DNA of 64,000 nt from a virus. The stretch lies in the IMG/VR virus record IMGVR_UViG_3300042691_041392; one strand, 5' to 3'. This document shows, piece after piece, positions 1 to 63,999 of the stretch. Under the pieces are notes generated by a model. It was not told where the DNA came from, ran no database searches, and was given only the letters and a program-made list of their open reading frames with translations. The stretch's first letter is position 1; each line of letters opens with the position of its first letter. A program made the position numbers and the translations under genes.

Positions 1-1
1 C

Positions 2-1396
2 TTTTTAGAATATAAATATGATGGGTATGAGTTACCAGTTGATATGAATAAACACGGTAAAGGATATCCATTTCAATCTAGATTTCCATATGATAAAAAT
101 AATATCTTCGGGTTTCATTGTGTGAAGGATTTAAATGAAGTTGATAAAATTCATAATTTAATTAGTAATAGTAATTCAAATTTTGAGGAAAAACTTTTAA
201 ATTTCTATGATAATATAGAAAAATCTGATATCAATATCAATCCAAAATATGAGGATGTTAGTATTTTAAATCATTATATTGGAGGTGCTTATATTGAAGT
301 TAAGTCAAAATTGAATAAACAATTTAAAGTTGAATTCTGGAATTCAAAGGGGTTTTGTGAATATTCAACAACCATTGGTAGTAATATGTGGACAAAAACA
401 AATAAGAAGTATTTTGAAGAGTACACATGTAAAGTCTGGGATGGTGAAGAATTAATCTATGATAAAAAGTATGATGCTACGGGTAAGAGAGTTTTTATAA
501 CATTAGAATCGAGATCAATTGGCGATACATTGGCTTGGTTTCCATATGTTGATGAATTTAGAAAAAAATGGAATTGTGAGGTTATATGTTCAACTTTCTG
601 GAATCACCTATTTAAGGAAACTTATCCAGAAATTGAATTTGTTGAACCGGGATCAGTGGTGAATCACATCTATGCTATGTATAATATTGGTTGGTTTTAT
701 AATGAGGATAATACTGTACAGTTTGATAAAAATCCAACAGATTTTAAAGAAATTCCACTTGGAAAAACATCAGCTGATATACTAGGTTTGGATTTTGAAT
801 ATGTCAGAGCTAAAATTAACTTACCAAAAGTAGAAAAAAAGAAAAGAGTTGGTATAGCAATTCACTCAACTGCACAAACTAAATACTGGAATAATCCAAC
901 TGGATGGCAGGAAGTTGTTTATTTTTTGAAGGCTAGTGGATATGAAGTTATGATTCTTTCTAAAGAAGGTGATAATTATATGGGTAATAAACATCCAGAA
1001 GGATGTGTGAAATTACCAGAGGGATCAATGGAGAAACTAATGGAAACAATGTTATCTTGTGAGTTTTTTATAGGAGTTGGTTCTGGTTTGAGTTGGGTAT
1101 CTTGGACAATAGGAGTCCCAACATTCTTGATATCAGGATTTAGTAAACCAATCTCTGAATTTGAAGGTGAGAATGTATTTAGAATTTTCAATGATTCAGT
1201 TTGTAATGGTTGTTACAATAGATATAGATTAGATGCTGGTGATTGGAATTGGTGTCCGGATCATAAAGGTACTGAAAGACAGTTTGAATGTACTAAGTCA
1301 ATTACTGGTAAAATGGTTATTGACACAATAATGAATTCTGGTTTAATAAGAGTGCCAAACTTGGATGAAGATGTTTTACCACAATTTAATTTTTAA
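2..1396 (+). CDS. Glycosyltransferase, TibC/Aah (autotransporter O-heptosyltransferase)-like C-terminal domain; 5'-truncated by window edge
   Basis: Motifs SIGDTLAWFP, STAQTKYWNNPTGW, FFIGVGSGLSW, LISGFS and four Cys (CNGC...WCP...FEC) typical of the TibC/Aah GT-B family; frame is open from base 2, upstream of the ATG at 44. Confidence 0.8.
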   Translation, partial: FLEYKYDGYELPVDMNKHGKGYPFQSRFPYDKNNIFGFHCVKDLNEVDKIHNLISNSNSNFEEKLLNFYDNIEKSDININPKYEDVSILNHYIGGAYIEVKSKLNKQFKVEFWNSKGFCEYSTTIGSNMWTKTNKKYFEEYTCKVWDGEELIYDKKYDATGKRVFITLESRSIGDTLAWFPYVDEFRKKWNCEVICSTFWNHLFKETYPEIEFVEPGSVVNHIYAMYNIGWFYNEDNTVQFDKNPTDFKEIPLGKTSADILGLDFEYVRAKINLPKVEKKKRVGIAIHSTAQTKYWNNPTGWQEVVYFLKASGYEVMILSKEGDNYMGNKHPEGCVKLPEGSMEKLMETMLSCEFFIGVGSGLSWVSWTIGVPTFLISGFSKPISEFEGENVFRIFNDSVCNGCYNRYRLDAGDWNWCPDHKGTERQFECTKSITGKMVIDTIMNSGLIRVPNLDEDVLPQFNF

Positions 1397-1398
1397 AT

Positions 1399-1426
1399 AA
1401 AAAAGAGACCTTTATGGTCTCTTTTT
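1399..1426. terminator. Bidirectional intrinsic terminator
   Basis: AAAAAA-GAGACC-tttat-GGTCTC-TTTTT between convergent genes. Confidence 0.8.
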
Positions 1427-2098
1427 GTTTACTTTTACTTTTACACCAGTTTCTTTTTTAATTGGTCGTATTTTTTTATTTTCATTTAGATTAACTGTTA
1501 CCTTTTTAGATACTTTAACAATAAATTCATCTTTCCAAGGTGTGAATAAGTTACCATCAGCATTTACTTCTAGTTTTATATTACCTCTTTGTCCTTCATT
1601 AAAAAGGCTTAATTTCTTAATAGGAATGATACATTTACCGTTTTTAACCTCACCTTTAAACATAAGATTCCAATCAGCTGATTCAATTACTAATCTAACT
1701 TCTGTATCTTTTTGACTTACACCTTCAATTGCTATATCACAAATAAATTCTTCAGATTTATCTTTGTATAACACATATGAATCTTCATCATTATAACTTT
1801 CGTTATTTTCTTCCAAATCTTCCTCTTCTGAAGAATTATCAAATGAATAATCATCTTGTTCTTGTTCTTCCTCACTATTGTAGTTATTATAAGGATTTAA
1901 GCTTTGATCAATTTCATCTTCATCATCGGCGGCGTCGTTGATATTTGTAAATATTTCTTTATCTTCATCAACCTCATCATCTTCATATCTATCTGAAAAC
2001 AAACCTTCTTTTAATAGATTTGACTTCATCTTTTTAAGATCTTCCATTTTATTACCACCTAGAAAATCTTCAAATCTAAAAACATCATTATCTTCCAT
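1412..2098 (-). CDS. Hypothetical protein, acidic linker and beta-rich C-terminus; probable virion protein
   Basis: 228-aa ORF; late motif at 2103-2111; N-terminal FRFEDFL and LLKE. Confidence 0.6.
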   Translation of the reverse strand: MEDNDVFRFEDFLGGNKMEDLKKMKSNLLKEGLFSDRYEDDEVDEDKEIFTNINDAADDEDEIDQSLNPYNNYNSEEEQEQDDYSFDNSSEEEDLEENNESYNDEDSYVLYKDKSEEFICDIAIEGVSQKDTEVRLVIESADWNLMFKGEVKNGKCIIPIKKLSLFNEGQRGNIKLEVNADGNLFTPWKDEFIVKVSKKVTVNLNENKKIRPIKKETGVKVKVNKKRP

Positions 2099-2108
2099 AA
2101 TTTATATA

Positions 2109-2519
2109 TTATTTTTGAAAATCAACTTTTATATTAATTGAATCGTTTAAAAAACGATCAAACTCGTTTATTGTTACTTTTATATCTTCTCTCGGATTTT
2201 TTATTTTTTCATATTCAATACCTCTAACTCTACAATATAATTTTATTATTTTATCGGTATTTTCTCTACCTAAATCCTTATTTAGTTGCCTCCATGGATT
2301 ATTTTTTTCATATTCTCCTTTATGTGGATATCCACTTCCACCACCACTCACTCGGCGTGATACCACTTCTAATAAAATAAAAACTTCATCCCAAGTTAAT
2401 TCAACATTTTCCCATTTTAAATTTACCTCTTCCCATTTTAAATACTTTTTACCAACTGAATATTCCAAATCACTCCAGTTTACATCTTGGTTTAATAAAG
2501 GTGAGTAAATTAAAGGCAT
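2109..2519 (-). CDS. Hypothetical protein
   Basis: 136-aa ORF preceded by late motif 2538-2546. Confidence 0.6.
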   Translation of the reverse strand: MPLIYSPLLNQDVNWSDLEYSVGKKYLKWEEVNLKWENVELTWDEVFILLEVVSRRVSGGGSGYPHKGEYEKNNPWRQLNKDLGRENTDKIIKLYCRVRGIEYEKIKNPREDIKVTINEFDRFLNDSINIKVDFQK

Positions 2520-2588
2520 ATAAAATTTTATTTCTGTTATATATTAAATAATTCATGTTTGGACACATGTTACTTAATATATACTACT

Positions 2589-5500
2589 ATGAGTTATGAT
2601 TTTACTGGTGCAACCGTCTCCGGAACATATGGTAGATTGGTTCAAGTAGTACATGGTACACCGGATTTATATTATGATGGTTTTGGAAATCTTTTAGATT
2701 TAGGAAGTGGTACATCTTCTGTTGGTCCACAAGGTCCGACAGGACCACAAGGAACATCTATGTTATTCCAAGGAGAATGGGATTCGATGATGATGTATTT
2801 CTACTATGATTTTGTTACATATAATGGAAATGCTTACTTATGTATTTCTGATTTAACTGGTTCAGCTCCTTGGTCATCACCTGATATAGATACATCTCAT
2901 TGGCAACAAATGTTAATTGGTTTATCAGGAACTTCCGGAACATCAGGGATAAATGGAACATCAGGTACAAATGGAACTTCAGGTACAAATGGAACTTCAG
3001 GGACTTCTGGATCTAATGGCACTTCAGGAACATCAGGTACAAGTGTTTCTACTAATTATGCTTATATAACATCAACCTACTCGGTATCCAATACAGATCA
3101 CTATATTGAGGCTAATGGAACTTTTGATATTACTTTACCGACAGCAATAGGTTTTTCAGGGAAAGGATTCATTATAAAAAATACCGGAACTGGTATAATA
3201 ACAATAAAAACAACTTCTTCTCAGCTAATTGATAATCTATCGTCATATAATTTAGCATTCTATGATACTCTTACTGTTGAAAGTAATGGATTAAATTGGT
3301 TAGTTAATCACCCACAAACTAAACAATTTATCCGAGTTTATAATAATACTGGTTCAATTATACCTAAGGGATCTGCTCTTAAAATACAGTCATCATATAG
3401 TGGTATTCCCAGTGTCTCTTTGTCAATTGCTAATGGTGTTGGAAATCAACAAGTAATTGGTCTGGCTTATATTGATATTCCAATTGCGTCTGAGGGTATT
3501 GCCATATCATCTGGTATCTTATCGGGACTTGATTTATCAGCTTATTCGATTGGTGATATTCTTTATTTATCTGATACAACACCAGGTAGTTTTATAAACT
3601 CATCAAGTACATTAGATTTTTCATCAAGAACTAACCAAATTGGTTATATTACAAATAATAGTTCAACAATTGGAACTCTACAAGTTGAAATTAATAATGA
3701 GGATATCAATTTATCTCTTACTGATATACAGAGAAATATATTAGAAGGTAATGTCATATCAACAGGTGTTTATAATTATTCGGGACTTGTTAAAACTAGT
3801 AGTACAACATTTACAGTGGGTAGTGCTTCTGGTTGGATTATAACTAATACAGGTACATATTCTATTAAACCAACAGTTTTACAAATTACTTATGGTGGAA
3901 CTACAAGTATAACAACACCTTACTTAAACACATTTGATAGTACTTATGTTTTATTAACAGCTAGTTCTTCATTACATTTACAAGGTACATTTCCAACAGC
4001 ACAAGAAAGAAGACAAAATATCTTCTTAGGTAAAGTTGTACACCCTGATAGACAAACCATTTTAAATGTAAATAATACTGTTGATTATGATGTATCACCA
4101 ATGTCCGCATTGAGAGATTTATGGTCACCAATCAAATTAATAAATCAAGGAATTATACCATCCGCTCATAGTACAACTTTAGAGTTTAATACATCAACTG
4201 GTATTCTTTGGGGTAATGGTATAAATTGGACTAATAATGAATTAAATCCAAATAGTATTAATATTAGTGGTCAATCTCCGGTAACTTTTCAATATAGAAC
4301 TCAAATAGGTGGTACATTTTCTAATACAACATTTATAGATCCTACTCATTATGATAATGGTGGTGTTATTAGTGTAGTAGGTGGTGGTAATGGTTCGTCA
4401 ACAAATCAAAGAATATATTTATTCCCAACTGGATTGGTAAGAGTTCAATATGGTCAAACAGTATATGGATCTTTATCTGAAGCGATTTCAGCAGCACAAG
4501 AAGAATTATATGTTGAGTATCCAAATAATAGAGATAATGGTATTCTTATAGGTATTTTATCTGTTAATAAAAATGCTTCAAACTTATCAGATCCCACACA
4601 GGCAAGATTTAATTTTGTTTCTAAGTTTGGTGAGATCTTAGGTGGATCTGGTGGTATATCAACAACTACATTACAACAAGCTTATGATAACTCATCTACA
4701 CCAGAAATAGTAACTAACTCTACTTTAGGAGCTGTTACAATCAAAAGAGGAAGTTCATTAGAAACCGATAATGTATTTGAAGTTCAAAGTGGTGTTGATG
4801 GTGTTACATTTAGTGTAACTGGTCAAGGTAGAACAAATACACATAACTTAACGATAACAGGAATTGGATCAACATCAAGTTTAACTAAATATATGGTTGT
4901 TGATGATAGTGGAAATACATATTATCAAACAACTAATCCAGGTGGTGGTAGTGGTACTTCAGGAACTTCGGGGGTGGGTACTTCAGGAACATCCGGTACA
5001 TCAGGTTTGAATGGAACAAGTGGTGTAAATGGTGTTGGTGGTGCACTAGGTTATTATGGTAACTTTCTTGATCTTACGACTCAGCCATTTATTACTCCTG
5101 GTGTTGCTCAAATAGTGGGTATTAACACTAATTCAGGATCAGTTGGATTTTCCTTATCAGGTACAGGTAGTGTGGTGATTGAAAATCCAGGAACATACAC
5201 TATGATATATTCTATCCAACTACAAAATACAGATGCTGATATCCACTATGCTGATATATGGTTAAAATATAATGGATTAGATTATCCAGATAGCACAACT
5301 AGATTTTATATACCGGCTAGAAAAAATTCAAATGAGTATGGTTATACAGTAGCAACTGTAAATTATGTTGGAACTTCAATAAACCCAAATGATACTGTCG
5401 AATTGTGGTGGCATTCTGATAGTAGTTTAGTATCAATTCAATATTTACCATCAAGTATATCACCTATAATTCCTGCTATACCTAGTGTGATTTCTACATT

Positions 5501-6140
5501 TACTCAGGTTATGTACACACAGATAGGACCAACTGGATCTAATGGAACATCTGGTACGAGTGGGAGTCAAGGCACTTCTGGAACTTCTGGAATAAATGGA
5601 AATGATGGAACATCTGGTACTTCCGGAATTTCTGGATTAAATGGAAATGATGGAACATCTGGTACAAGTGGGAGTCAAGGTACTTCCGGAACTTCTGGTG
5701 TTAATGGTGTTGATGGTACTTCCGGAATTTCTGGATTAAATGGAAATGATGGAACATCTGGTACGAGTGGAAATCAAGGAACATCCGGAACAAGCGGTTC
5801 ATCAGGAACTTCTGGTTCATCAGGTACATCCGGATCATTCGGAACTTCTGGTTCATCAGGTACATCCGGATCATTCGGAACTTCTGGTTCATCAGGTACA
5901 TCCGGATCATCAGGAACTTCTGGTTTATTACTATTGAGTGGTTCAACTGACAATGGACTAATAACTTTAAATGGAACTATACCAAATGGCACGGTTGAAA
6001 ATAATCTAACATTTGATGGTACAAATTTAAATGTAACTGGTAATACTGAAATAAGCGGAACATTTAGTAGTAATTCAAATTCAATTTTAACTCAAAATTT
6101 AATACAAGCTGGACTATTATATCTATCAAATAATTTATAA
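2589..6140 (+). CDS. Collagen-like (Gly-Thr-Ser repeat) fibre protein 1
   Basis: G-X-Y blocks of GTS/GSS/GxN separated by globular beta-rich domains (one CBM5/12-like GEW...VTYNG...W); ATG at 2589 just after TAATATATA 2575-2583 preferred over TTG 2559. Confidence 0.75.
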   Translation: MSYDFTGATVSGTYGRLVQVVHGTPDLYYDGFGNLLDLGSGTSSVGPQGPTGPQGTSMLFQGEWDSMMMYFYYDFVTYNGNAYLCISDLTGSAPWSSPDIDTSHWQQMLIGLSGTSGTSGINGTSGTNGTSGTNGTSGTSGSNGTSGTSGTSVSTNYAYITSTYSVSNTDHYIEANGTFDITLPTAIGFSGKGFIIKNTGTGIITIKTTSSQLIDNLSSYNLAFYDTLTVESNGLNWLVNHPQTKQFIRVYNNTGSIIPKGSALKIQSSYSGIPSVSLSIANGVGNQQVIGLAYIDIPIASEGIAISSGILSGLDLSAYSIGDILYLSDTTPGSFINSSSTLDFSSRTNQIGYITNNSSTIGTLQVEINNEDINLSLTDIQRNILEGNVISTGVYNYSGLVKTSSTTFTVGSASGWIITNTGTYSIKPTVLQITYGGTTSITTPYLNTFDSTYVLLTASSSLHLQGTFPTAQERRQNIFLGKVVHPDRQTILNVNNTVDYDVSPMSALRDLWSPIKLINQGIIPSAHSTTLEFNTSTGILWGNGINWTNNELNPNSINISGQSPVTFQYRTQIGGTFSNTTFIDPTHYDNGGVISVVGGGNGSSTNQRIYLFPTGLVRVQYGQTVYGSLSEAISAAQEELYVEYPNNRDNGILIGILSVNKNASNLSDPTQARFNFVSKFGEILGGSGGISTTTLQQAYDNSSTPEIVTNSTLGAVTIKRGSSLETDNVFEVQSGVDGVTFSVTGQGRTNTHNLTITGIGSTSSLTKYMVVDDSGNTYYQTTNPGGGSGTSGTSGVGTSGTSGTSGLNGTSGVNGVGGALGYYGNFLDLTTQPFITPGVAQIVGINTNSGSVGFSLSGTGSVVIENPGTYTMIYSIQLQNTDADIHYADIWLKYNGLDYPDSTTRFYIPARKNSNEYGYTVATVNYVGTSINPNDTVELWWHSDSSLVSIQYLPSSISPIIPAIPSVISTFTQVMYTQIGPTGSNGTSGTSGSQGTSGTSGINGNDGTSGTSGISGLNGNDGTSGTSGSQGTSGTSGVNGVDGTSGISGLNGNDGTSGTSGNQGTSGTSGSSGTSGSSGTSGSFGTSGSSGTSGSFGTSGSSGTSGSSGTSGLLLLSGSTDNGLITLNGTIPNGTVENNLTFDGTNLNVTGNTEISGTFSSNSNSILTQNLIQAGLLYLSNNL

Positions 6141-6183
6141 GAATAATATAAAAATTAATATATAAGAAAAATATATTATAGTT

Positions 6184-9100
6184 TTGGCAAGAAATCCTAG
6201 ATATCAAATACATAATTTAGATACAGATGGTTATGGTAAGTTGGTTCAAATTATTGATGGTATTCTTTATGATGGTTTTGGAAATCAATTAATTTTTCAA
6301 GGTGGTGGTGGAACAGGAACCTCAGGGACATCAGGTGTTAATGGTAATAATGGTTTAAATGGATCTTCTGGTTATGGAGTACCATCTGGTGGTTCTACCG
6401 GTCAAGTTCTTGTTAAAGTTGATTCAACAAACTATAATACACAATGGGTAACATTTTCTGGTGGTGGTAGCACATCCGGATCATCGGGAACAAGTGGTCC
6501 ATCTGGAGCTAGTGGTGCTAATGGATCTAATGGTACATCAGGAACCCGTGGATCTTCAGGAACTTCCGGTCCAGCAGGAGAAAATGGAACAAGCGGAACT
6601 TCTGGTATTGGATCTAATGGTACATCAGGAACATCGGCGATTGGTACATCTGGAACAAGTGGTGAAAAAGGAACTTCAGGAACAAGTGGTGAAAAGGGAA
6701 CATCCGGAACTAGCGGTGGTGGTTCTGCTGGAACGAGTGGAACATCTGGTATTGGATCTAATGGTACATCAGGAACATCAGCGATTGGTACATCAGGCAC
6801 GAGTGGTTTAAATGGATCTTCAGGAACAAGTGGCGAGAATGGAACATCAGGCACGAGTGGTACATCTGGTATTGGATCTAATGGTACATCAGGAACATCG
6901 GCGATTGGTACATCAGGAACAAGTGGTGAGAACGGAACTTCCGGAATAAATGGATCTAACGGGACAGCTGGAACTTCTGGAATAAATGGCGTTAATGGTA
7001 CATCTGGAACTTCCGGTGTAAATGGTTCATCAGGAACTTCCGGAATAAATGGCGTTAATGGTACATCTGGGACTTCCGGTGTAAATGGTTCATCAGGAAC
7101 TTCTGGATCTTCTGGAACTTCCGGAATAAATGGATCTAACGGGACATCTGGAACTTCCGGAATAAATGGCGTTAATGGTTCATCAGGAACTTCGGGTTTT
7201 AATGGCTCATCAGGGACATCAGGAACAAGTGGAGAAAATGGAACTTCGGGTTCATCAGGAACTTCGGGTTTTAATGGCTCATCAGGTACATCAGGTAGTC
7301 AAGGTACATCAGGTAGCGCAGGAACTTCTGGAATAAATGGTGGTGACGGATCTTCTGGAACATCCGGATCTTCTGGAACTAGTGGAATTACAGGAACAAG
7401 CGGTAGTGCAGGAACTTCCGGAACAAGTGCAACTAGTGGAAGCTCAGGAACATCAGGTAGTCAAGGAACAAGTGGAACATCTGGTATCGGATCTAATGGT
7501 ACATCCGGCACAAGTGGAACATCAATGAGTGTATCCGGATCTAATAATGAACTTTTGACATCAGATGGTTCTGGTGGTATTGTTTCAGAATCTTTGATAA
7601 CTTTTGATGGTGCTAAATTAAGTTTATTATATCAATCTGGTGATGAAGGAGGTGAAATATTATTAAATAAATCAGTTACTAATAATACACTTGATGGTGT
7701 GGGTATAACAATAGACTCTTATCGAAATAAAATAAGGTTTTTTGAACAAGGTGGTTCAGCAAGAGGAGCATATATTGATTTGACGGAGTGTTCTGCTGGT
7801 GTTGGAACAAATCTACTTAGTGGAGTTGGTGGATCCGGTACAAGTGGAACATCAGGTGTTAATGGTTCATCTGGAACTTCCGGTGTTAATGGCGCTAATG
7901 GTTCATCAGGAACTTCCGGCGTAAGTGGTGCTAACGGCTCATCTGGAACTTCCGGTGTAAGTGGTGCTAATGGTAATGATGGATCTTCTGGAACTTCCGG
8001 TGTTAATGGTGTTAACGGTTCATCTGGAACTTCCGGTGTAAGTGGTGCTAACGGCTCATCCGGAACTTCCGGTGTAAGTGGTGCTAACGGCTCATCTGGA
8101 ACTTCTGGTGTAAGTGGTGCTAACGGATCTTCTGGAACTTCCGGTGTAAATGGTGCTAACGGAAATGATGGATCTTCTGGGACTTCTGGTGTAAGTGGTG
8201 CTAACGGATCTTCTGGAACTTCAGGTGTTAATGGCTCATCAGGAACAAGTGGTGTATCTGGTTCAAATGGTATAGATTCTGCAAGTTTTGAATATTATTA
8301 TAGTACATCCACAACAGGATCAGATCCTGGTTCAGGCTATTTTAGGTTAAATAACCTAACTATGGGTAGCGCTACTCTACTATATATAGACCAGTTTGAT
8401 AAAGGAGGTAATAACAATTTACAAGGTTTCTTAAATTCTTTATCTAACTATGGATCTACATCTAGAAGAGGTTTTATTAAGATAACAAAACAAAATGACT
8501 TAACTTGGTTTCAAACATATGAATTTAGCACTACACAAGATAATACAGGGTGGTGGACAATAACACTGTCTAATGTTATATCAGATGCAAACTTTACAAA
8601 TAATGACTTATGCTTTGTAAGTTTCAATGTTTCTGGTCCAAATGGATCGAGTGGAACTTCAGGTATAAATGGTGCTAACGGATCTTCCGGAACTTCTGGT
8701 GTAAATGGTGCTAACGGATCTTCCGGAACTTCCGGTGTAAATGGTGCTAACGGATCTTCCGGAACTTCTGGTGTTAATGGTGCTAACGGATCTTCTGGAA
8801 CATCCGGTGTTAATGGTGGTAATGGTTCATCTGGAACATCCGGTGTTAATGGTGTTAATGGTGCTAACGGCTCATCTGGAACTTCAGGTGTAAGTGGTGC
8901 TAACGGTAACGATGGATCTTCTGGAACTTTTGGTTCATCTGGAACTTCCGGTGTAAGTGGTGCTAACGGTAATGATGGTTCATCTGGAACTTCCGGTGTT
9001 AATGGAACATCCGGAACAACAGGAACTTCTGGTTTACTAACATTAACTGGAACAACAGATAATGGAGTAATAACTCTAAATGGATCTCAGCCAAATGGAA

Positions 9101-9252
9101 ATGTTGAAACAAATTTAACATTTGATGGTAGTCAATTAAATGTAACAGGATCTACTAGAATAAGTGGAACATTCTCAGGAACAACTTCTAATTATGTCAC
9201 TGCTGATTTTATAACACAAACAGTTTTACTTTATCTTTCAAATAATACTTAA
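6184..9252 (+). CDS. Collagen-like (Gly-Thr-Ser repeat) fibre protein 2
   Basis: Long G-X-Y tracts; shares N-terminal YGxLVQ...YDGFGN and C-terminal TDNG.ITLNG..PNG.VE.NLTFDG...LLYLSNN with fibre 1; TTG start. Confidence 0.75.
6301..7525 (+). repeat. Coding tandem repeat (GTS/GSS/GxN triplets)
   Basis: Degenerate 9-bp unit repeats such as ggaacttct/ggtacatca; further tracts at about 2926-3042, 5530-5925, 7830-8270 and 8640-9035. Confidence 0.9.
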
Positions 9253-9297
9253 TAGAGAAGAGTATTTAAAATATATACTCTAAAAAAGTATATAAAA

Positions 9298-9732
9298 ATG
9301 GCAAATACTTTAACATTTACAAGTACACCTTTTCTACAAGGATTTATAGCATCAACTGCTAGTAACTCATCAAATAACACTAAATATGATGTTTTAGATT
9401 CGGATGCTAATGATAGAAGAATATATGGAATGGCTATAACATCAACTGATGCAGGTGCACAAACCGTTAAAATTCACTTGAATAATGGATCGACATCATA
9501 TCAAGCTTTTACATTAAACGTTCCTTTGAATTCTGGTAACTCTACTTCTGTCGCATCAGTTGATATTATGGGTAGTGTATATGGAGCTTCAATTTTTCAA
9601 AAACAAAGAGATGCTAATGGCGTTCCATATTTTAATCTACCAGCTAACTGGAAAGTTCAAATGGAATACAACACGACATTGGCGAGTGCTGAGGTTTTAA
9701 ATGTTTTTGTTTTTGGTGAAAGTTACGCATAA
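9298..9732 (+). CDS. Virion-associated protein, paralog domain copy 1
   Basis: RRIYG...NSGNST...DANGVPYFNLPANW...GESY shared with the next two ORFs. Confidence 0.65.
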   Translation: MANTLTFTSTPFLQGFIASTASNSSNNTKYDVLDSDANDRRIYGMAITSTDAGAQTVKIHLNNGSTSYQAFTLNVPLNSGNSTSVASVDIMGSVYGASIFQKQRDANGVPYFNLPANWKVQMEYNTTLASAEVLNVFVFGESYA

Positions 9733-10157
9733 TGGGAAATAAATTAACATACACATCTAGTAGTTTTATGGAATGTACAGTAGCGACAGCTTCTAGAACA
9801 GGAGGTACTATTTATGATATTTTGGGAGCAACTTCTTCAAATAGAAGAGTATATGGGATAAGTGTTGTCAATGCTGATAATGCAGCTAACCCGGTAAAAG
9901 TCTATTTAAACGATGGGATTAATAGATACCAAGTTAGTAATGTCAACTTAGCTGCCAACTCTGGTAATAGTACATCTGTTGGATTAACTAATGTCTTTAT
10001 TAGTACAATGGGTGAATCTGTTTTTTGTAAAACAAGAGATGCTAATGGTATACCATATTTTAATTTACCTGCAAATTGGAAGATACAATTGTCATTGACA
10101 AATACACCAGGTGCTGGTGAGTACGTACATACTTTTGTTTATGGAGAAAATTATTAA
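9732..10157 (+). CDS. Virion-associated protein, paralog domain copy 2
   Basis: RRVYG...NSGNST...DANGIPYFNLPANW...GENY; TAATG stop-start overlap. Confidence 0.65.
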   Translation: MGNKLTYTSSSFMECTVATASRTGGTIYDILGATSSNRRVYGISVVNADNAANPVKVYLNDGINRYQVSNVNLAANSGNSTSVGLTNVFISTMGESVFCKTRDANGIPYFNLPANWKIQLSLTNTPGAGEYVHTFVYGENY

Positions 10158-10162
10158 TTACT

Positions 10163-11017
10163 ATGGCTGATTCATTATTATTATCAAATTCAATGTACTT
10201 AGAATGTATATCATTAACAGCGTCAAGTTCATCTGGTACTGCCTATGCAATAATAACAGCTACTTCAAGTTATGATAGAAGAATTTATGGAATTAGTATA
10301 GCAAATACATCAGCGGTTAACCACTTAACTTGTACACTTTGGTTAAGTGATGGAACCACAAATTATCAAATGGGTAAATTAGATGTTCCGGCTAACTCAG
10401 GTAACACATCAACAATCTCAGCAGTTGATTTATTTACTAAATCGGTTTTTGGTGGTTTATTAACAAATTCTATGGCTGATAATATGGGGGTTTGGTATTT
10501 TAATTTACCAAAAACTTGGAGTATGAAGTTTACTTATACGAATACTTTATCAACTGGTAATGAGATGACATTTACATCATTTGGAGAAATATATGATAGT
10601 TATAATATAAGACATACATCAAGTGGATTTGAACAGTCCGCAACATTTTCAAGTGCAACTGGTACAAATACAATTGACTTGTTGAGTTCATCAATATATG
10701 ATAGAAGAATTTATGGACTTAGTTCTACTAGTACAGATGGTACCGCAAGAACAATGACTATTAAATTAAGTAATGGTGTAAATAGTTACTTGTTATATAC
10801 CGAATCTATATTAGCAAACTCTGGTAATGCGACTACCATAGCATCAGGTGATATATTTTATGATGCTTTGATACAGGGTTTATTTACAAGAACTGCTGAC
10901 TCGGAGGGTGCTTGTTATTATTTTAATTTACCGGCTGGTTGGAGTATAACTGGTAAATTATCAGGTTCAACTACTGGTGTTATAACAATAAAAACGATTG
11001 GAGAAGTTTATGGGTAG
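10163..11017 (+). CDS. Virion-associated protein, tandem duplication of the same domain (copies 3 and 4)
   Basis: Two RRIYG...NSGN...YFNLP..W...GE.Y units. Confidence 0.65.
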   Translation: MADSLLLSNSMYLECISLTASSSSGTAYAIITATSSYDRRIYGISIANTSAVNHLTCTLWLSDGTTNYQMGKLDVPANSGNTSTISAVDLFTKSVFGGLLTNSMADNMGVWYFNLPKTWSMKFTYTNTLSTGNEMTFTSFGEIYDSYNIRHTSSGFEQSATFSSATGTNTIDLLSSSIYDRRIYGLSSTSTDGTARTMTIKLSNGVNSYLLYTESILANSGNATTIASGDIFYDALIQGLFTRTADSEGACYYFNLPAGWSITGKLSGSTTGVITIKTIGEVYG

Positions 11018-11903
11018 AAATGGTAAAAATGATGGATTAAAACAAGGTAGACTACAAGGTGCTAAAACTGGTTTTGGTTTTTCTAGAATGGAAAGTGGTT
11101 TAAAGAAAGGTGTTGTAAGTGAATCTGGAATGCACAATAAAATACAAGATCCGACTTTACTTCAAGGTAGTAAAAAACCGAGTTCTTTTTGGTTGGCTGA
11201 TTACGCAACTGCCACCGGAGCAGGAGCTACAATAACCGCTTTATCAGAATTGATATCAGGAGCAACCGCCTTTACTATATTATCATCACCCGCATATCAA
11301 CCACCATATTCAGGTAACGGTGGAGTTTATAATAATAAAGCTTATATTGATTTTAACTCAGGAGCCGATTTAATATACACAAGTTTATCAACAATGGGCT
11401 CTGGTAAAAATGAATTAACTTTGATGATGGTTGTTAGATTAAGTACTACATCAACAACAACTTTATTTTATAGTGTTGACTCAACAATTTCAACAACAGT
11501 AGGAGATATAAGAGTTGAATCAATTGGTGGTAATAAAATAAGAGTAACATTTATAGGAAATCCAACTTCAACATCATCTGTTTATGAGACATATGATTCG
11601 ACATTAGAGGGTAATAACTGGCATTTATTAACAGTGAAGTTTAGGTTATATCAACCTGGTGGTCAAGGATCGGAAATGGAGCTATGGTTAAATGGTAATT
11701 TGAATATGGCGCCAGTTACTACAACCTTTGGTGGATCTACATCAACATTTGTTGGTAACTCATACAATATAGGTAATAACTCATCACAAACGGCTGGTGG
11801 TTCAAATATGGCGGCTTTTTTAACATTGGATTATTGGGTAAATTCATCTGAACAGATGAGATTAGAAAACTTTTTTAGATGGTATTATGGTAGGAGATTT
11901 TAG
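11010..11903 (+). CDS. LamG/concanavalin-A-like lectin domain protein, putative receptor-binding protein
   Basis: NNWHLLTV...LWLNGNL...IGN pattern; ATG at 11010 chosen as start. Confidence 0.55.
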   Translation: MGRNGKNDGLKQGRLQGAKTGFGFSRMESGLKKGVVSESGMHNKIQDPTLLQGSKKPSSFWLADYATATGAGATITALSELISGATAFTILSSPAYQPPYSGNGGVYNNKAYIDFNSGADLIYTSLSTMGSGKNELTLMMVVRLSTTSTTTLFYSVDSTISTTVGDIRVESIGGNKIRVTFIGNPTSTSSVYETYDSTLEGNNWHLLTVKFRLYQPGGQGSEMELWLNGNLNMAPVTTTFGGSTSTFVGNSYNIGNNSSQTAGGSNMAAFLTLDYWVNSSEQMRLENFFRWYYGRRF

Positions 11904-12102
11904 TGTTAATAGACCGAGTTTTGATCCAGAAACTCAAAAATTAGTTCTTAAGCAAGAATATATTGGAATTGGTGAAGTTCGTAGATTTTCAGGAACAATT
12001 CTTATAATATTTGATACGAACGTAGCAACTGAAGATATGTATCCGTATTATTTCTATAATGGTTTAGATTCAATATTTGATGTTGTTCCAATTAATCAAT
12101 AA
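11887..12102 (+). CDS. Hypothetical protein
   Basis: 71-aa ORF overlapping the end of the previous gene in the operon. Confidence 0.5.
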   Translation: MVGDFSVNRPSFDPETQKLVLKQEYIGIGEVRRFSGTILIIFDTNVATEDMYPYYFYNGLDSIFDVVPINQ

Positions 12103-17527: not shown

Positions 17528-18169
17528 ATGATTATATACAAAATATCTAATATAATAAATGATAAGATCTATATAGGTCAGACAATAGAGACATTGGATA
17601 AGAGGTGGAGAAGACACACATGGAAGTCAACTATAAAAAGAAATGTAATGGCTATAACCAATGCGATTATAAAATATGGTGTGGAAAATTTCATGATAGA
17701 GGAAATTGATAGTGCTGAAAATATAGAGGAGTTAAATATGAAAGAGGAATATTACATAAAATATTATGATTGTATATCACCAAAGGGTTATAATATAAAA
17801 AATGGTGGTGATAATAAAAAATTATCAGAGGAGACTAAACTAAAAATTAGCATTTCGAATAAAGGTAAAAAAAGAACAAAGGAAACTATAAAAAAACTAT
17901 CAGATTCACACAAAGGATGGGTTCCATCAGAGGAAACAAAACAAAAATGGAGAGATGCGTTTGGTGGTAAAAAACCATCTGACAACACTATAAATGCAGC
18001 TATAGAAGCAAATCAGAAGGAATACACACTTTTAAATCCGGATGGTGAACTTATAACATTTATAAATATGGCAAAGTTTTGTAAGGAAAACAATTTATCA
18101 AATTCTAAATTGTGCTTAGTTGCTAGTGGTAAGATAAAATCGCATAAAGGTTGGACAAAACCTATTTAA
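17528..18169 (+). mobile_element. Free-standing GIY-YIG homing endonuclease with NUMOD3 repeats
   Basis: IIYKI...IYIGQT, E in NMKEEYYI, GYN, and SEETK repeats; inserted antisense between NADAR and the methylase. Confidence 0.85.
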
Positions 18170-18668
18170 AAAATTGTTCTAAACCAGTTTTCTTTTCAAT
18201 TCCTCTTAGTTCATCACGAACTTTCATAAGTATTTTACCAAGATGATTTTTACCTTTATTTCCACACTTTTCACAATAACATGACCCATAAAAATTGTCG
18301 TGCCAATAATTACCTTCGATTAGCTGAAGATCTTCTGTGTTTAATAGAAGTTCTGATAAATTATCATTTTTGAATTTTTCTCTAACACCCCAATTCATGA
18401 ACTCTAATTTCTTTTCATCCCAATCACTACGAACTTTTAACTTTTGACCAAGTTTTTTAACGTGACCTGGACTTGGTGTTTTCGCAATCATTTCTTTAAA
18501 GTCAGCAGGTGTGTAATAAATACCATTTATCATTTGATCATTTTTACATTTTTGTGCTACATAGAAATGTTCTACACTTGGATATTTAATTCCTTGATGT
18601 TCTATTTCAACTGGATAGAAATTGGATAGAAAATTCCATCTACCATCAAATCTATTTATATAACTCAT
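18162..18668 (-). CDS. NADAR family (YbiA-like) hydrolase
   Basis: FLSNFYP...YPSVEHFY.AQK...KF...LIEGNYWHDNFYG...GKNHLGKILMKVR. Confidence 0.9.
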   Translation of the reverse strand: MSYINRFDGRWNFLSNFYPVEIEHQGIKYPSVEHFYVAQKCKNDQMINGIYYTPADFKEMIAKTPSPGHVKKLGQKLKVRSDWDEKKLEFMNWGVREKFKNDNLSELLLNTEDLQLIEGNYWHDNFYGSCYCEKCGNKGKNHLGKILMKVRDELRGIEKKTGLEQFFK

Positions 18669-25889: not shown

Positions 25890-26288
25890 ATGATTCTAAC
25901 TAGAGAAATAGATGTAAAGATTAGTGAGTCCAATTTTCATTACTATGAAGACTTAGGATATGATATAGGATTGGGTGAGGTTATTACCATACCAGTAGAA
26001 TTACTTTCGAAAGGTTCCCATCATAAAATAAAGTGCCAATGTGATAGTTGTGGTATAGAAAAACAGGTTATATATAAAAACTATCTTAAATACGACAATA
26101 AGAATTGGGGAGACTATTTTTGTAGAAAATGTTCAGAAATAAAAAGAAAAGAAACACTAAGAAAAAACTTTGGTGTTGATTATCCTATACAAAATAAAAA
26201 AGTATTATCTAAAATGAAAAATACCTTAGTTGAAAAATACGGTGTAGATAATATATCAAAAAAGAATAAAATAAATAAAGATGGCTAA
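25890..26288 (+). CDS. Zn-finger protein resembling homing-endonuclease DNA-binding modules, no nuclease domain
   Basis: CDSC...CRKC and FGVDYP/YGVDNI repeats; start moved to ATG 25890. Confidence 0.55.
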   Translation: MILTREIDVKISESNFHYYEDLGYDIGLGEVITIPVELLSKGSHHKIKCQCDSCGIEKQVIYKNYLKYDNKNWGDYFCRKCSEIKRKETLRKNFGVDYPIQNKKVLSKMKNTLVEKYGVDNISKKNKINKDG

Positions 26289-28185
26289 ATACAATGAAGG
26301 AGATATTCTTGAATCTCAAATAGAATTCTCCGTTAGCGGAAATGCAACTGTCAAAGTTGATGGAAAAGAATTTTTCGTACATAAAAAGAGAACGTTAAAT
26401 TCACTACACTTAGATAAAGTAAGATTTGTTCTCTTTAAAGGAGAAAAAAAATTAGAAGCAAAAGTAATAGAGGTAGTTGAAAGATTTAAATTAGAATTTG
26501 TAGGAACTACTCAAGTTAAAAAAGATCACACATTTGTTATACCAGATAACTCAAAAATACACGTTGACTTTTATATAAAAGGTAAACACTCAGCAGAAGA
26601 TAATCAAAAAGTACTTGTTAAATTTGATAGTTGGGAAAACGGTCAAAAATCACCAAATGCTAAAATTGTTAAAATTTTAGGAACTGTTGGTGAGAATGAA
26701 ACCGAAATGAACGCTATTATGTATGAATATAACTTACCAGTGGATTTCCCACAAGAAGTTTTAAATGAATCAGAGTTAATATCAGAAGTTATTACTGAGA
26801 AAGAGATATCTAAAAGAAGAGATTTGAGAAATATAACTACAATCGGTATCGATCCGTTTGATTCAAAAGATGCTGATGATACAATCGGATTAGAATTTAA
26901 AGATGGTAAAAGATATGTTTCTATAAATATCGCAGATGTTACACACTATATAAAACCAGGAAGTGCCTTAGATGAAGAAGCTTATAAAAGATCATCTTCT
27001 GTTTATTTAGTTGATAGATGTGTGCCAATGATACCAAAAAGATTGAGTAATGGTATATGTTCTTTAAAATCAGGTAGTGATAAACTATGTTACTCTGTTA
27101 TAGTTGAATTAGATACAAATGGTAGAATTGAAAACACTTGGTTTGGTAGAACTATTGTAAACGTAAATAAAGACTATTCTTATGAAATGGCTCAAGAAGT
27201 TATCGACAGAGGAACAGCATCAGAAGAAAATAAAGATTGTGATGAGGTTATTTTAGAATTACACAGATTAGCTTTAAAAATGAGAAGAAGAAGAATGTTA
27301 GGAGGTTCCATGGAAATTGGTGGTGTTGAAGTTAAATTCAAATTAGCTGATGATAATAAAAAACCAATTGGACTTTATTTAAAAGAACAAAAAGAAGCTA
27401 ATCACTTAATAGAAGAATATATGTTATTAGCGAATAGAGAAGTTGCTAAGTTTATTAAGTCTAGAGGGTTACCTTGTGTTAATAGAATTCACGAAGAACC
27501 GGATGAAACTAAATTAGAACATATTAAAACATTCATATCAACTTTAGGATATGAAGTAAATTACGGTGATACACCTGAGAAGACTAAATTAGTTATAAAT
27601 GAACTAATGAAAAGTTGCAAAGGAACTAGTGAGGAAAACATCATTACAACTTTAATAGTTAGAGCTCAGCAAAAGGCTAAATATACAACTAGAAACATTG
27701 GTCATTATGGTTTGGGATTTGAACACTATTCACACTTCACAAGTCCGATTAGAAGATATAGTGATATGTTGACACATAGATTATTATCAATGGCATTGAA
27801 AAGTGAGGGATATAGTAAAGATGTTAAACCAAACGAATTAGAAAAACAATGTGAGTGGATATCTAAACAAGAAGTAGTATCAGCAAAAGCTCAAAGAGAT
27901 TCTATTAAGTATAAACAAGCTGAATACTTAGGAGACAGAATTGGTCAAGTTTTTGATGGAATTGTTTCAGGTGTATTAGATAGAGGAATCTATGTAGAAT
28001 TGTTTGAAAGTAAATGTGAAGGTTTAATAAAACTAAGTAGTTTAGAAGGAAAATGGATGGCTTATCCAGATAATTACTATGCTGTTAGTGATTTAGGTGA
28101 TAAAGTTAGATTAGGTGATCCAATAAAGGTTGTTGTTAAGTCAGTTGATTTAGAAAAGAAACAAATCGATTTTTTAAAATTTTAA
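26281..28185 (+). CDS. rnr: Ribonuclease R (RNB family)
   Basis: IDPFDSKDADD, IADVTHY, LIEEYMLLAN, HYGLGF..YSHFTSPIRRYSD and a C-terminal S1 domain. Confidence 0.92.
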   Translation: MAKYNEGDILESQIEFSVSGNATVKVDGKEFFVHKKRTLNSLHLDKVRFVLFKGEKKLEAKVIEVVERFKLEFVGTTQVKKDHTFVIPDNSKIHVDFYIKGKHSAEDNQKVLVKFDSWENGQKSPNAKIVKILGTVGENETEMNAIMYEYNLPVDFPQEVLNESELISEVITEKEISKRRDLRNITTIGIDPFDSKDADDTIGLEFKDGKRYVSINIADVTHYIKPGSALDEEAYKRSSSVYLVDRCVPMIPKRLSNGICSLKSGSDKLCYSVIVELDTNGRIENTWFGRTIVNVNKDYSYEMAQEVIDRGTASEENKDCDEVILELHRLALKMRRRRMLGGSMEIGGVEVKFKLADDNKKPIGLYLKEQKEANHLIEEYMLLANREVAKFIKSRGLPCVNRIHEEPDETKLEHIKTFISTLGYEVNYGDTPEKTKLVINELMKSCKGTSEENIITTLIVRAQQKAKYTTRNIGHYGLGFEHYSHFTSPIRRYSDMLTHRLLSMALKSEGYSKDVKPNELEKQCEWISKQEVVSAKAQRDSIKYKQAEYLGDRIGQVFDGIVSGVLDRGIYVELFESKCEGLIKLSSLEGKWMAYPDNYYAVSDLGDKVRLGDPIKVVVKSVDLEKKQIDFLKF

Positions 28186-31970: not shown

Positions 31971-32495
31971 ATGTTAAATTCCAAGCCAAATAATTCAAAA
32001 TATCACGGTGGTCTTTATATTCCAAAAAATAAAGACAAGGTAATAAAATTAAATACTCAAGGAGGTCTTTTTTATAGAAGTTCTTGGGAGAAAAAGATAA
32101 TGACATGGTTAGATTTAAAACCGGAAATAACTAAATGGGGTGCTGAGTGCTTACAGATACCATATCAAATGACACACTTTGAAAATGGAGATACAAGAGT
32201 TAAAAACCATGTATATCATGTTGATTTTTATTATGAAATGAGAATTAATGGTGTTTTGAAACAAGTTGTAGCTGAAGTTAAACCACAAAAAGAATACGCA
32301 TTTGTACAAGCATTAACTGAAGGTAGGCTTCAAGTACCTGAGGATAAAGGTAAGAAGTTAAAAAACTTCGAGTATGACCTAAAAATGGCGTATAAAAATA
32401 AACAAAAATGGGAAACAATGATAAACTGGTGTAACAAAAAGGGTTATGACTTTATAATCATAACAGAAGAACACCTAAAGAAATTTAATGTTTAA
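31971..32495 (+). CDS. gp4: Head completion nuclease (T4 gp4/TnsA-like)
   Basis: YRSSWE...W..E...IPY...YHVDF...EVKP...NKQKWE...F.IITE. Confidence 0.85.
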   Translation: MLNSKPNNSKYHGGLYIPKNKDKVIKLNTQGGLFYRSSWEKKIMTWLDLKPEITKWGAECLQIPYQMTHFENGDTRVKNHVYHVDFYYEMRINGVLKQVVAEVKPQKEYAFVQALTEGRLQVPEDKGKKLKNFEYDLKMAYKNKQKWETMINWCNKKGYDFIIITEEHLKKFNV

Positions 32496-42412: not shown

Positions 42413-42691
42413 ATGGCAAAAACTAAAGAACAAGTAGAGTCAAAAGTAGAAGAGATTTTATCCAAACCATATCGTTTAGATCTTCACAATGACGATTTTA
42501 ATTCTTTTGATTGGGTAATCACTTGCCTAATGAAAGTATGTAAACATGAATATGAACAAGCTAACCAATGTGCTTTTATAGTTCATCATAATGGTGTTTG
42601 TGATGTTAAATATGGAGACTATGAGACTATCTCTGATATGAAAGATAAACTACAAAATGCTGGTTTATCAGTAACAATGGAAGCTAATTAA
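42413..42691 (+). CDS. clpS: Clp protease adaptor ClpS
   Basis: LHNDDFNSFDWVI..L...QA.QCA.IVH..G...VK.G. Confidence 0.88.
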   Translation: MAKTKEQVESKVEEILSKPYRLDLHNDDFNSFDWVITCLMKVCKHEYEQANQCAFIVHHNGVCDVKYGDYETISDMKDKLQNAGLSVTMEAN

Positions 42692-62979: not shown

Positions 62980-63999
62980 CTATATATAAAAATATTCAGG
63001 ATAATTATTTGATTTTAATCTATATCTCATTATTTGTCTATCAATACCACTCTTCTCAACAGCCATTGATATAGATTCATATTCAACACCATTTATAGAA
63101 ACTGGTTTTAACTTCGGTACACCAGTTTCCTTTAGTTCAACTACTTTATCTAAGTAAAACCATTCTGGATATGATTTAGAATTAAGTCTCCAACTTATAT
63201 AATCATATTCTTTATTAAGAATCTTTGTAGCATCGGTTATAGAACCATATTCAACACCGTCTATTGACACTCTCTCTTTTTTTGATAAATGAGGATCAAC
63301 TTCAACAAATTTATTATACTTTATATTCAAATCATTATCAACAAAAAGATAGTTTTTAAAGCGTGGTGATCTAAGTCTAAATCGAATTAATGACCTATCA
63401 ATATCTATTTTACTCACAGCATCTGAAATTGAATCATATTCAACGCCATCTATTATTATTTTTATTTTAGTTTCTTGGTCAAATCGTTTTCTTTTTTCAT
63501 TAAGTCTAATCTTTATTTTTAATTTTAAATCTTGACCAAGATATTCATAGAATTTATATCTTCTTTTGAAAAACCTATTTGGAACACAATCGAGATAAGA
63601 AATTAGACCATCTATATTTTTTTCAAAAATTAACTTATCAATCTTATCAAATTCCAAATCTTCTCTAATTTTATATTTTCCAAAAAAATATTTTAATTCA
63701 TGTCCAAAAAAATCATAGAATCCATCAGTGTTTTTAAGAAAATTATTATAAACTCTTTTTTTAATCAATTTAATTTCATTCACATATTCATCAAACCTAC
63801 CTTGATTTATTTCATTCTTAATAAATTCACACCTTTCTTTGAATTTATCATTAAATTCCTCCCACCTCTGTTTATTTTTTAATATAGAATTAATTGATAA
63901 AATATTCTTATTAATATTTACTTTGAGTTTTTCTTTATATTCAGTAGCTCTTACTTCACCAAAAGACTCTTCATATGTTCTTCCTTTAGTTTTACTACT
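62980..63999 (-). mobile_element. Homing endonuclease C-terminal DNA-binding region (NUMOD-type repeats); 5'-truncated
   Basis: Three I.GVEY.SI..A.......I..RL.S..Y repeats; frame stays open to the window end (KGRTYEESFGE..A.EYKEKL). Confidence 0.65.

Follow-up and report, generated by a model that had tools for sequence, protein, structure and literature searches.

What would a phage use a TibC/Aah-like O-heptosyltransferase for, and do the genes next to it encode its acceptor? This question is raised by the beginning of a 64-kb stretch of viral DNA (IMG/VR record IMGVR_UViG_3300042691_041392; the whole stretch, as analysed, is referred to here as the window), in which a transferase gene is followed by two genes for collagen-like fibres. 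The reading favoured here, with a probability of roughly 0.65, is that the phage would glycosylate its own fibres. An earlier note, made from the letters of this DNA, had proposed the same; the part of that proposal which has gained strong support, from comparison only, is the link between the transferase and Ser/Thr-rich Gly-X-Y fibres, since the two are enriched near each other in both directions of search, a corresponding gene pair occurs in bacterial chromosomes, and a transferase-less sister phage carries a different type of repeat. The glycosylation step itself is discussed below in conditional terms. The three genes are the following.

Positions 2..1396, plus strand: C-terminal 464 amino acids of a two-domain glycosyltransferase, assigned by TIGR04414, a TibC match in PDB, Foldseek and residue mapping

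Positions 2589..6140, plus strand: fibre 1, matching PF01391 (84.6 bits) and PHROG tail-fibre families

Positions 6184..9252, plus strand: fibre 2, matching PF01391 (237.6 bits) and PHROG tail-fibre families

The transferase open reading frame (ORF) is open at its 5' end, where it is cut by the window edge, and does not represent the whole gene. Its residues 107-444 match positions 28-372 of the 374 positions in the NCBIfam model TIGR04414 (hepto_Aah_TibC, entitled 'autotransporter strand-loop-strand O-heptosyltransferase') with 295 bits, the cut-off being 200. The Pfam family GT9 is matched with 26.1 bits (cut-off 22) and the NCBIfam family RfaC with 15.3 bits. Sequence matches in PDB are to TibC (4rb4, E 4.8e-58; 4rap, E 1.9e-57), and an AlphaFold2 model built on seven relatives, with a mean predicted local distance difference test score (pLDDT) of 72.4, retrieves TibC 4rap first in Foldseek (E 1.6e-31, template modelling score 0.80 by target), the next family being WaaC (6.5e-8). 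In the model, the protein appears to adopt the fold of the BAHT family, namely an N-terminal β-barrel and an atypical GT-B domain with thumb and finger insertions; this TibC/Aah-like domain spans about residues 80-450, and the iron-finger segment within it (401-427) is modelled with a pLDDT below 50.

The residues named for TibC in the available part of PMC4358343 were mapped onto the transferase through the TibC alignment. In particular, the catalytic base Asp-110 corresponds to D175, the β-phosphate contacts Thr-226 and Lys-230 to T290 and K294, and the heptose-O4 contact Trp-305 to W365, while the iron-finger residues Cys-339/342/358/370 align with C401, C404, C418 and C430, a putative metal site. 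All of these, including the equivalents of the four Cys, are kept in 32-34 of 34 viral representatives. Moreover, the thumb-tip positions Y326, M327 and F428 (F265, V266 and F368 in TibC) are hydrophobic and conserved; in TibC, a ring dodecamer, the N-terminal β-barrel, the thumb tip and the four-Cys finger serve ring assembly and protein-substrate binding (available part of PMC4358343). Judged by its score, modelled fold and aligned catalytic residues, the enzyme is a true member of the TibC/Aah (BAHT) family. Its closest relatives are L141 (748 amino acids, 72% identity) and L005 (772 amino acids, 62% identity in the alignment). In a quick unrooted tree, the window transferase groups with L141 (support 96) and then with L005 (support 95), and four plasmid BAHTs lie beyond a long branch (Shimodaira-Hasegawa-like approximate likelihood ratio test 100, length 1.39).

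Fibres 1 and 2 are the sole collagen-like ORFs in the window. Fibre 1 starts at TTG 2559 in the listed ORF or, more likely, at ATG 2589 (MSYDF..., as in L141), so that 1.16-1.19 kb separate it from the transferase stop at 1396. It comprises an N-terminal attachment-like module, a central domain resembling tail fibres/tailspikes, a C-terminal module that fibre 2 also has, and Gly-X-Y tracts at nucleotides 2919-3044, 4977-5066 and 5526-5930, in which 54 Ser and 38 Thr were counted; residues 339-691 match tail fibre/tailspike proteins of isolated phages. Fibre 2 contains eight Gly-X-Y tracts (nucleotides 6307-6378, 6478-6612, 6643-6723, 6787-6876, 6907-7428, 7438-7491, 7828-8277 and 8635-9039, with 162 Ser and 79 Thr) that are interrupted by two globular segments. 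Its DNA contains tandem arrays with periods that are multiples of 9 nucleotides, and over the last 59 residues the protein shares 64% identity with the end of fibre 1. A tblastn search of fibre 2 against phages gave no matches, probably owing to the low-complexity filter.

Counted in runs of at least six, fibre 1 has 69 triplets (longest run 45) and fibre 2 has 201 (longest run 58). At the X and Y positions, Ser and Thr together make up 67% and 60%, respectively, and GTS is the top triplet in both proteins (35/69 and 72/201). As in the collagen family PF01391, Gly occupies every third residue over long uninterrupted runs and the X and Y residues vary, which would argue for a structural constraint of the triple-helix type and not for a mere linker. 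The Pro/hydroxyproline content typical of a collagen helix is absent, with Pro at 0.7% of X/Y positions in either fibre. The earlier note had described a TibC/Aah-like transferase with a four-Cys site, about 1.2 kb away from two fibre genes with almost proline-free, Thr/Ser-dominated G-X-Y tracts, and this description agrees with the family score and the TibC matches by sequence and fold, with the alignment of the four Cys, with the coordinates and with the composition of the tracts.

If the fibres are the acceptors, enzyme and tracts should be found together elsewhere. Relatives of the transferase were found on 276 IMG/VR contigs, and the 80 loci retained from these were taken with ±10 kb; 57 loci around relatives of the window terminase (TerL) served as controls. 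To count as collagen-like, an ORF needed 36 or more residues within Gly-X-Y runs that were six or more triplets long. Such an ORF lies within ±10 kb in 35/80 TibC-like viral loci compared with 2/57 TerL controls (Fisher p 4e-8, a value that overstates the pairing because the rows are related, not independent). The controls all belong to a single phage clade. When the TibC-like loci are dereplicated at 80% identity, such an ORF is found within the same distance in 20/33 clusters, and the 3,511 triplets pooled from the clusters with a collagen-like ORF comprise 33% GSS and 31% GTS. Whole records were compared as well: PF01391 is matched in 8/9 TibC-bearing records (nine of the ten longest) and in 1/10 TerL-clade records of at least 90 kb without a TibC-like gene (0/10). 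The sole match in the latter group sits at a contig end, and this group includes records of 483 and 508 kb that are 97-98% complete.

In the reverse direction, a DNA pattern of five GTS triplets, (GTS)5, was found at no fewer than 76 loci on at least 67 contigs. A TibC-like gene lies within 10 kb of 9/76 listed loci (on 7 contigs), compared with 0/57 controls. Among the matches listed, 13/45 (GTS)5-bearing whole records contain a TibC-like gene, as do 9/14 of those of at least 50 kb. Co-occurrence across phages, which had been put forward as a check on the proposal, was thus borne out as enrichment over controls both ways (35/80 vs 2/57; 9/76 vs 0/57).

The pairing extends to bacteria. A scan of prokaryote genomes found 13 loci with a TibC-like gene; at 7 of these, the gene is short and has a small ORF at a distance of 14-275 bp. 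This ORF begins with a hydrophobic stretch that looks like a signal peptide (an assessment by eye, not by a predictor), followed by a Pro-free (GTS)n tract. The seven loci belong to Methylobacter luteus, another Methylobacter, two Methylomicrobium and three metagenome-assembled genomes (MAGs), assigned to Methylococcales, an uncultured gammaproteobacterium and Polaromonas. The Methylobacter luteus pair lies between queA/mfd and DUF2845/CsiV/miaB/phoH/ybeY, which are housekeeping genes, and therefore is not located in a prophage. The Methylomicrobium pair differs from that of Methylobacter luteus in the partner protein, the orientation and the surrounding genes. Examples of this two-gene module are L144:8929-11116 and L150:9914-11900, to which five further loci are added; the bacterial (GTS)n partner proteins additionally carry Cys-containing globular repeats. 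On plasmids, 4/4 BAHT genes examined lie directly upstream of a large surface-protein partner gene (encoding AIDA-I-type autotransporters, Hint-domain proteins or a 1732-amino-acid protein), so that placing the enzyme beside its substrate appears to be a habit of the BAHT family.

The sister phage LR756502, whose TerL is 74% identical to that of the window, has no TibC-like gene (tblastn, E 1e-5). It keeps a homologous fibre at the corresponding place, with an N-terminus that is 57-59% identical, and this fibre is preceded by NAMPT and NUDIX genes, not by transferases. In place of GTS, the tracts of this fibre consist of GAT, GSQ and GIQ triplets, with Thr at the Y position, and Pro amounts to 4%.

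Relatives further indicate what the missing part of the window gene may encode. Judging from them, the full-length protein has approx. 750-770 amino acids and two domains, and the window gene represents its C-terminal part: residues 1-80 align with the end of the N-terminal domain (approx. 330 amino acids) of L141 and L005. In L141, L005, L019 and L008, this domain has no Pfam matches at E <0.001. The relatives' domain likewise shows no BLASTP similarity to the GT4 domain of L006, and a PDB profile search returned one match at chance level; its AlphaFold2 model (pLDDT 37.7) is too poor for a fold search. An FLDADxQ motif in the alignment hints at a DXD-type transferase. L005 is an IMG/VR contig whose terminase (L111) is 79% identical to that of the window, and both L005 and L141 share the gene order of the window, i.e., transferase, two small convergent ORFs and fibre. 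Just upstream of the transferase, L005 encodes an FkbM-type methyltransferase as well as GT2 and GT4+GT25 proteins. Fusions of the TibC-like domain to GT4, GT32 or methyltransferase domains occur in other relatives, the proteins being 608-1303 amino acids long; of the 20 proteins scanned, 18 exceed 600 amino acids. The cultured Microcystis phage Mel-JY01 shows the same arrangement of fibre and enzyme genes, with a Gly-X-Y ORF, a structural protein and then a 1226-amino-acid GT4+TibC fusion. As far as predicted domains tell, the fused and neighbouring glycan genes have the layout of a multi-step glycan assembly line.

Two records from this set deserve separate mention. L141 (JAIOYD010000068.1, 7.5 kb, 30% G+C) is labelled 'MAG: Rickettsiaceae bacterium' and is syntenic with the window in the transferase, both small ORFs, the fibre and a homologue of a 256-amino-acid ORF; it is most likely a phage contig that was binned into a bacterial MAG. 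The record of Mel-JY01 (PP395634.1) starts with a 1016-amino-acid open frame (L001:2-3049, plus strand), 606 residues of which are Gly-X-Y (Pro 3%, Ser+Thr 79%). Two opposite-strand hypothetical proteins are annotated over it, probably on the wrong strand of a collagen-like fibre gene, and this gene may wrap around the record ends.

In the mechanism proposed here, the enzyme would act in the cytoplasm of the infected cell and would move heptose from a nucleotide-heptose to Ser (perhaps also Thr) hydroxyls of G-T-S and G-S-S triplets in both fibres, so that the phage would modify proteins of its own. Adenosine diphosphate (ADP)-heptose or a close analogue would serve as donor; here it would come from the host, in relatives from phage HldE-like genes. 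Extension or capping of the sugar would then fall to the fused N-terminal domain and to neighbouring transferases and a methyltransferase of the kind seen in the syntenic L005. The product would be heavily O-glycosylated, proline-free collagen-like fibres, and the benefit could be helix stabilisation in place of proline/hydroxyproline, shielding against proteases or antibodies, or receptor binding. What the comparisons establish is the family of the enzyme, the conservation of its catalytic and metal residues, the gene order and a co-occurrence above controls in phages and bacteria; the acceptor, the sugar, the timing and the benefit of the glycosylation are what we infer.

Several observations weigh against fibre glycosylation, in addition to the relatedness of the rows behind the pairing statistics. 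Members of the clade have so far yielded no glycan, glycopeptide or enzyme activity, and TibC recognises a β-helix, not a Gly-X-Y tract (available part of PMC4358343). A collagen-like ORF is absent within ±10 kb from 45/80 TibC-like loci (13/33 clusters), and collagen matches are missing altogether from one TibC-bearing record that is 62% complete. Most loci whose TibC-only gene is short have no fibre beside it; in three whole records with the short form, giant Pro-free GTS/GSS ORFs lie 45-50 kb from the TibC-like gene. Seen from the fibre side, 32/45 listed (GTS)5-bearing records have no TibC-like gene, including a 58-kb record (98% complete) and a 148-kb one (84% complete), and thus such fibres exist without a TibC-like enzyme. 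Finally, a terminator-like hairpin and two convergent ORFs stand between the transferase and the fibres of the window.

Positions 1400..1426, no strand given: terminator-like hairpin, 11 bp in the stem, located where the transferase stop and the end of the convergent ORF 1412-2098 face each other

Positions 1412..2098, minus strand: acidic 228-amino-acid ORF with no assigned family, found at the same place in relatives

Positions 2109..2519, minus strand: 136-amino-acid ORF with no assigned family, syntenic in L141 (70% identity) and L005 (65% identity)

A consensus scan gave 8 terminator-like sites, with 5.1 expected, and the hairpin at 1400..1426 has the longest stem among them; it follows that the transferase and the fibres are probably separate transcription units, as far as can be predicted from the DNA. 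Promoter-like sites in the window are not above shuffles (60 vs 63.2). Neither small ORF has a match in Pfam, PHROG or NCBIfam. The ORF at 1412-2098 shows 66% identity to L141:2274-2891 and 58% to L005:11361-12026 (both on the minus strand), and over its C-terminal half it shares 62% identity with an ORF that precedes the fibre gene of LR756502, a phage without the transferase, which means that the ORF at 1412-2098 does not depend on the transferase.

The remaining objections concern the sugar donor. In TibC, Arg-286 hydrogen-bonds adenine N1, which is the stated basis of ADP specificity, and its change to Ala abolishes or largely diminishes activity (available part of PMC4358343); in the window transferase, this residue is L346. 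Across the 34 viral representatives, the column holds Val in 18, Leu in 9, Ala in 3, Thr in 2 and Arg in 1, and it is hydrophobic in 30/34. Ile, Leu, Val, Met or Phe is found in 11/13 prokaryote loci, with gaps in 2, and Arg in 4/4 plasmid BAHTs. The clade-wide loss of Arg-286 may mark altered nucleotide recognition. Moreover, the 64 kb of the window contain no heptose-pathway genes, so the donor supply would rest on the host or on genes located outside the window.

In many relatives, such genes adjoin the transferase. With tblastn, 36/80 loci have a gene like HldE domain II and 37/80 one like domain I, all within 1.5 kb of the transferase; by cluster, domain II is found in 11/33, domain I in 11/33 and both in 10/33. 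TIGR02199 (HldE domain II) is matched in 12/29 TibC-bearing records. In NCBIfam, the HldE-like genes have HldE domain II (87-105 bits, cut-off 181.5) and domain I (97-123 bits, cut-off 345) as best families, with scores below the equivalog level. One HldE-like cassette, that of L024, belongs to the terminase clade of the window (L107, 77% identity). The position of these genes directly after the transferase makes a nucleotide-heptose donor probable, and by this gene arrangement nucleotide-heptose is the likeliest donor for the clade. The earlier note's reservation that the donor need not be ADP-heptose is therefore upheld in one respect, the replacement of Arg-286 in the clade, and weakened in another, since the HldE-like genes of 11/33 clusters point to nucleotide-heptose. 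The loss of Arg-286 had been considered as evidence against ADP-heptose as such; this argument was withdrawn in view of the adjoining HldE-like genes. The STTR5 nucleotide-promiscuity motif (PMC11573728) lends no support to cytidine or uridine diphosphate-heptose: it is absent from 6/6 phage HldE-II-like proteins inspected, in which His, Tyr or Phe stands in place of Arg.

The split HldE-like genes at L012:11146-12277, L024:11186-12309, L032:11302-12424 and L038:11585-12726 lie directly 3' of the TibC-like gene in the order domain II, domain I, the reverse of that in the bifunctional bacterial protein. In L012, L032 and L063, they are followed by an ORF of 1000-1400 amino acids with a weak nicotinamide mononucleotide-adenylyltransferase-like segment.

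Three other explanations were weighed. The one that survives best, though we consider it unlikely, is that the transferase is active on a protein but that its acceptor is not the Gly-X-Y tracts; candidates would be another virion protein (capsid, sheath, or stretches of the fibres outside the collagen-like tracts) or a protein on the host surface, and the fibres would be mere neighbours in a variable late or host-recognition region. The hairpin and the two convergent ORFs that part transferase from fibres would fit this explanation, as would the 13/33 clusters without a collagen-like ORF within 10 kb. Precedents can be cited for both of its elements: in mycobacteriophage virions, phage glycosyltransferases decorate the phage's own capsid and tail-tube C-termini (cited in the available part of PMC12619734), and in pelagimyophages, glycosyltransferases and rfaE lie within the tail-fibre region, a variable region, and are read as lipopolysaccharide (LPS) genes (available part of PMC7029224). 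However, mere neighbourhood does not account well for the recurrence of the G-[TS]-S pairing in unrelated contexts, including housekeeping regions of methanotrophs without nearby phage genes, for the enrichment over controls in both directions, or for the different repeat type of the sister phage that lacks the transferase.

That the enzyme modifies host LPS or some other glycan of the envelope, with the gene serving an auxiliary function or superinfection exclusion, is clearly less probable. The enzyme has its fold and Pfam family (GT9) in common with the LPS heptosyltransferases WaaC and WaaF, phage glycosyltransferases close to fibre genes have usually been interpreted along these lines, clusters of this kind being read as LPS-related (available part of PMC7029224), and HldE-like genes could equally supply LPS core synthesis. 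Against this, the window protein scores 295 bits on the protein-acting BAHT model and 15.3 bits on RfaC, Foldseek separates TibC (1.6e-31) from WaaC (6.5e-8), and the BAHT-specific N-terminal β-barrel, thumb-tip residues and four-Cys finger are kept; an LPS function would also leave the pairing with (GTS)n genes in bacteria unexplained. Least probable of all is that there is no functional link, the adjacency being historical or the transferase having a non-catalytic, assembly-type role: the lack of direct evidence of activity and the loss of Arg-286 are compatible with it, but the catalytic Asp and the phosphate and sugar residues kept in 32-34 of 34 representatives argue for an active enzyme, and the association lies far above controls.

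Glycosylation of the phage's own fibres, the preferred reading, has its nearest parallel in the TibC-TibA and Aah-AIDA-I systems of E. coli (PDB 4RAP/4RB4). The window enzyme belongs to the same family above the curated cut-off and is predicted to have the same fold; like TibC, it has the catalytic Asp, the Thr/Lys phosphate contacts, the Trp sugar contact, the four-Cys iron finger and the hydrophobic thumb tip. As in TibC-TibA, the enzyme gene adjoins a gene for a long, repetitive, Ser-rich surface protein, and as in TibC/Aah systems, heptose-activating genes adjoin the enzyme gene in many relatives. Unlike in TibC-TibA, the partner is a Gly-X-Y collagen-like fibre in phages and a small secreted (GTS)n protein in bacteria; the adjoining autotransporter β-helix that serves BAHTs as acceptor is absent, its place being taken in the window by the collagen-like fibres. 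The clade further differs from TibC in having Leu, Val or Ile for Arg-286 (L346 in the window), in its extra N-terminal domain and in being phage-encoded.

O-Glycosylated collagen-like proteins are represented by BclA of Bacillus anthracis, with its GXT repeats, and by the cuticle collagen of Riftia, in which Thr is galactosylated. In both, proline-poor Gly-X-Y tracts rich in hydroxy amino acids carry O-glycans with a presumed role in stabilising or functionalising the helix. Organism, sugar and transferase are in each case other than those considered here, and neither protein is known to be made with a BAHT-type enzyme or heptose.

Mycobacteriophage virion glycosylation (Freeman et al. 2023, Cell Host Microbe, as cited in PMC12619734) likewise involves phage-encoded enzymes that act on the phage's own virion proteins, the targets being the capsid and tail-tube C-termini; the available passage on mycobacteriophages in PMC12619734 mentions neither collagen-like repeats nor a BAHT enzyme. 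Enzymes of nucleoside diphosphate (NDP)-heptose biosynthesis occur in viruses, where their role is unsolved (commentary, PMC11573728). These are monodomain genes resembling heptose kinases and nucleotidyltransferases, as in the relatives of the window transferase. Unlike the cases treated in PMC11573728, the genes of these relatives, which the window does not share, directly follow a gene like that of a protein O-heptosyltransferase, which is therefore a candidate for their use. A full-text literature search, with most subscription journals outside its coverage, found no paper on a phage TibC-like enzyme or its link to collagen-like fibres and nothing on Mel-JY01.

The window is AT-rich (24-41% G+C) and encodes a T4-type major capsid protein, portal, large terminase, prohead protease, clamp loader and tail sheath. 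In the large terminase it shares 74% and 73% identity with LR756502 and LR745206, uncultured phage genomes of 642 and 635 kb, and the window thus is, judged by its predicted proteins, a fragment of a huge myovirus-like phage. A megablast search of positions 1-12000 against phage records gave no matches. The syntenic relatives L005 and L141 lack a fibre 2 gene; compared with them, positions 6184-11903 form an extra block between fibre 1 and the conserved 256-amino-acid ORF at 12131. This block contains fibre 2, three paralogous small ORFs (9298-9732, 9732-10157 and 10163-11017, the last a tandem double; 33-45% mutual identity, no family matches) and a 297-amino-acid ORF.

Elsewhere in the window, the tail sheath gene (54576-58607, plus strand) is unusually long, with 1344 amino acids; sheath families match only the C-terminal approx. 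350 residues (PHROG 34521, 319 bits), and nothing matches the N-terminal 990 residues. An RNase II/R-type exoribonuclease (26281-28182, plus strand; RNB domain 330 bits, plus CSD and S1 domains), a ClpS adaptor homologue (42413-42688, plus strand) and a NADAR-domain protein (18165-18668, minus strand) are also encoded. Mobile-endonuclease-like genes are spread among the core genes: a GIY-YIG/NUMOD3 protein (17528-18166, plus strand), a protein with a TnsA-like endonuclease N-terminal domain (31971-32492, plus strand) and a protein with an I-TevI DNA-binding domain that crosses the 3' edge of the window (62983-63999, minus strand).

Beyond this locus, BAHT-like enzymes and proline-free (G-T/S-S)n tracts could together constitute a widespread, undescribed hyper-heptosylation system of phages and bacteria, in which dense O-heptose, extended and methylated by fused enzymes, replaces hydroxyproline in collagen-like helices and gives viral NDP-heptose genes their long-sought use; we offer this broader proposal tentatively, at somewhat short of even odds. 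Known examples of phage virion glycosylation are few, and fibre glycosylation, if true, would add a large and ecologically widespread class comprising huge and T4-like aquatic phages. It would also give the BAHT family, known from enterobacterial adhesins, a new type of acceptor, would suggest how proline-free collagen-like helices gain stability, and would provide a testable answer to the open question of what viral heptose-activating enzymes are for (PMC11573728). Since the Microcystis phage Mel-JY01 and Methylobacter strains are in culture, the idea is open to direct experiment. A coat of glycans on the fibres would also matter for host recognition, for phage stability and for the way in which fibre genes are annotated.

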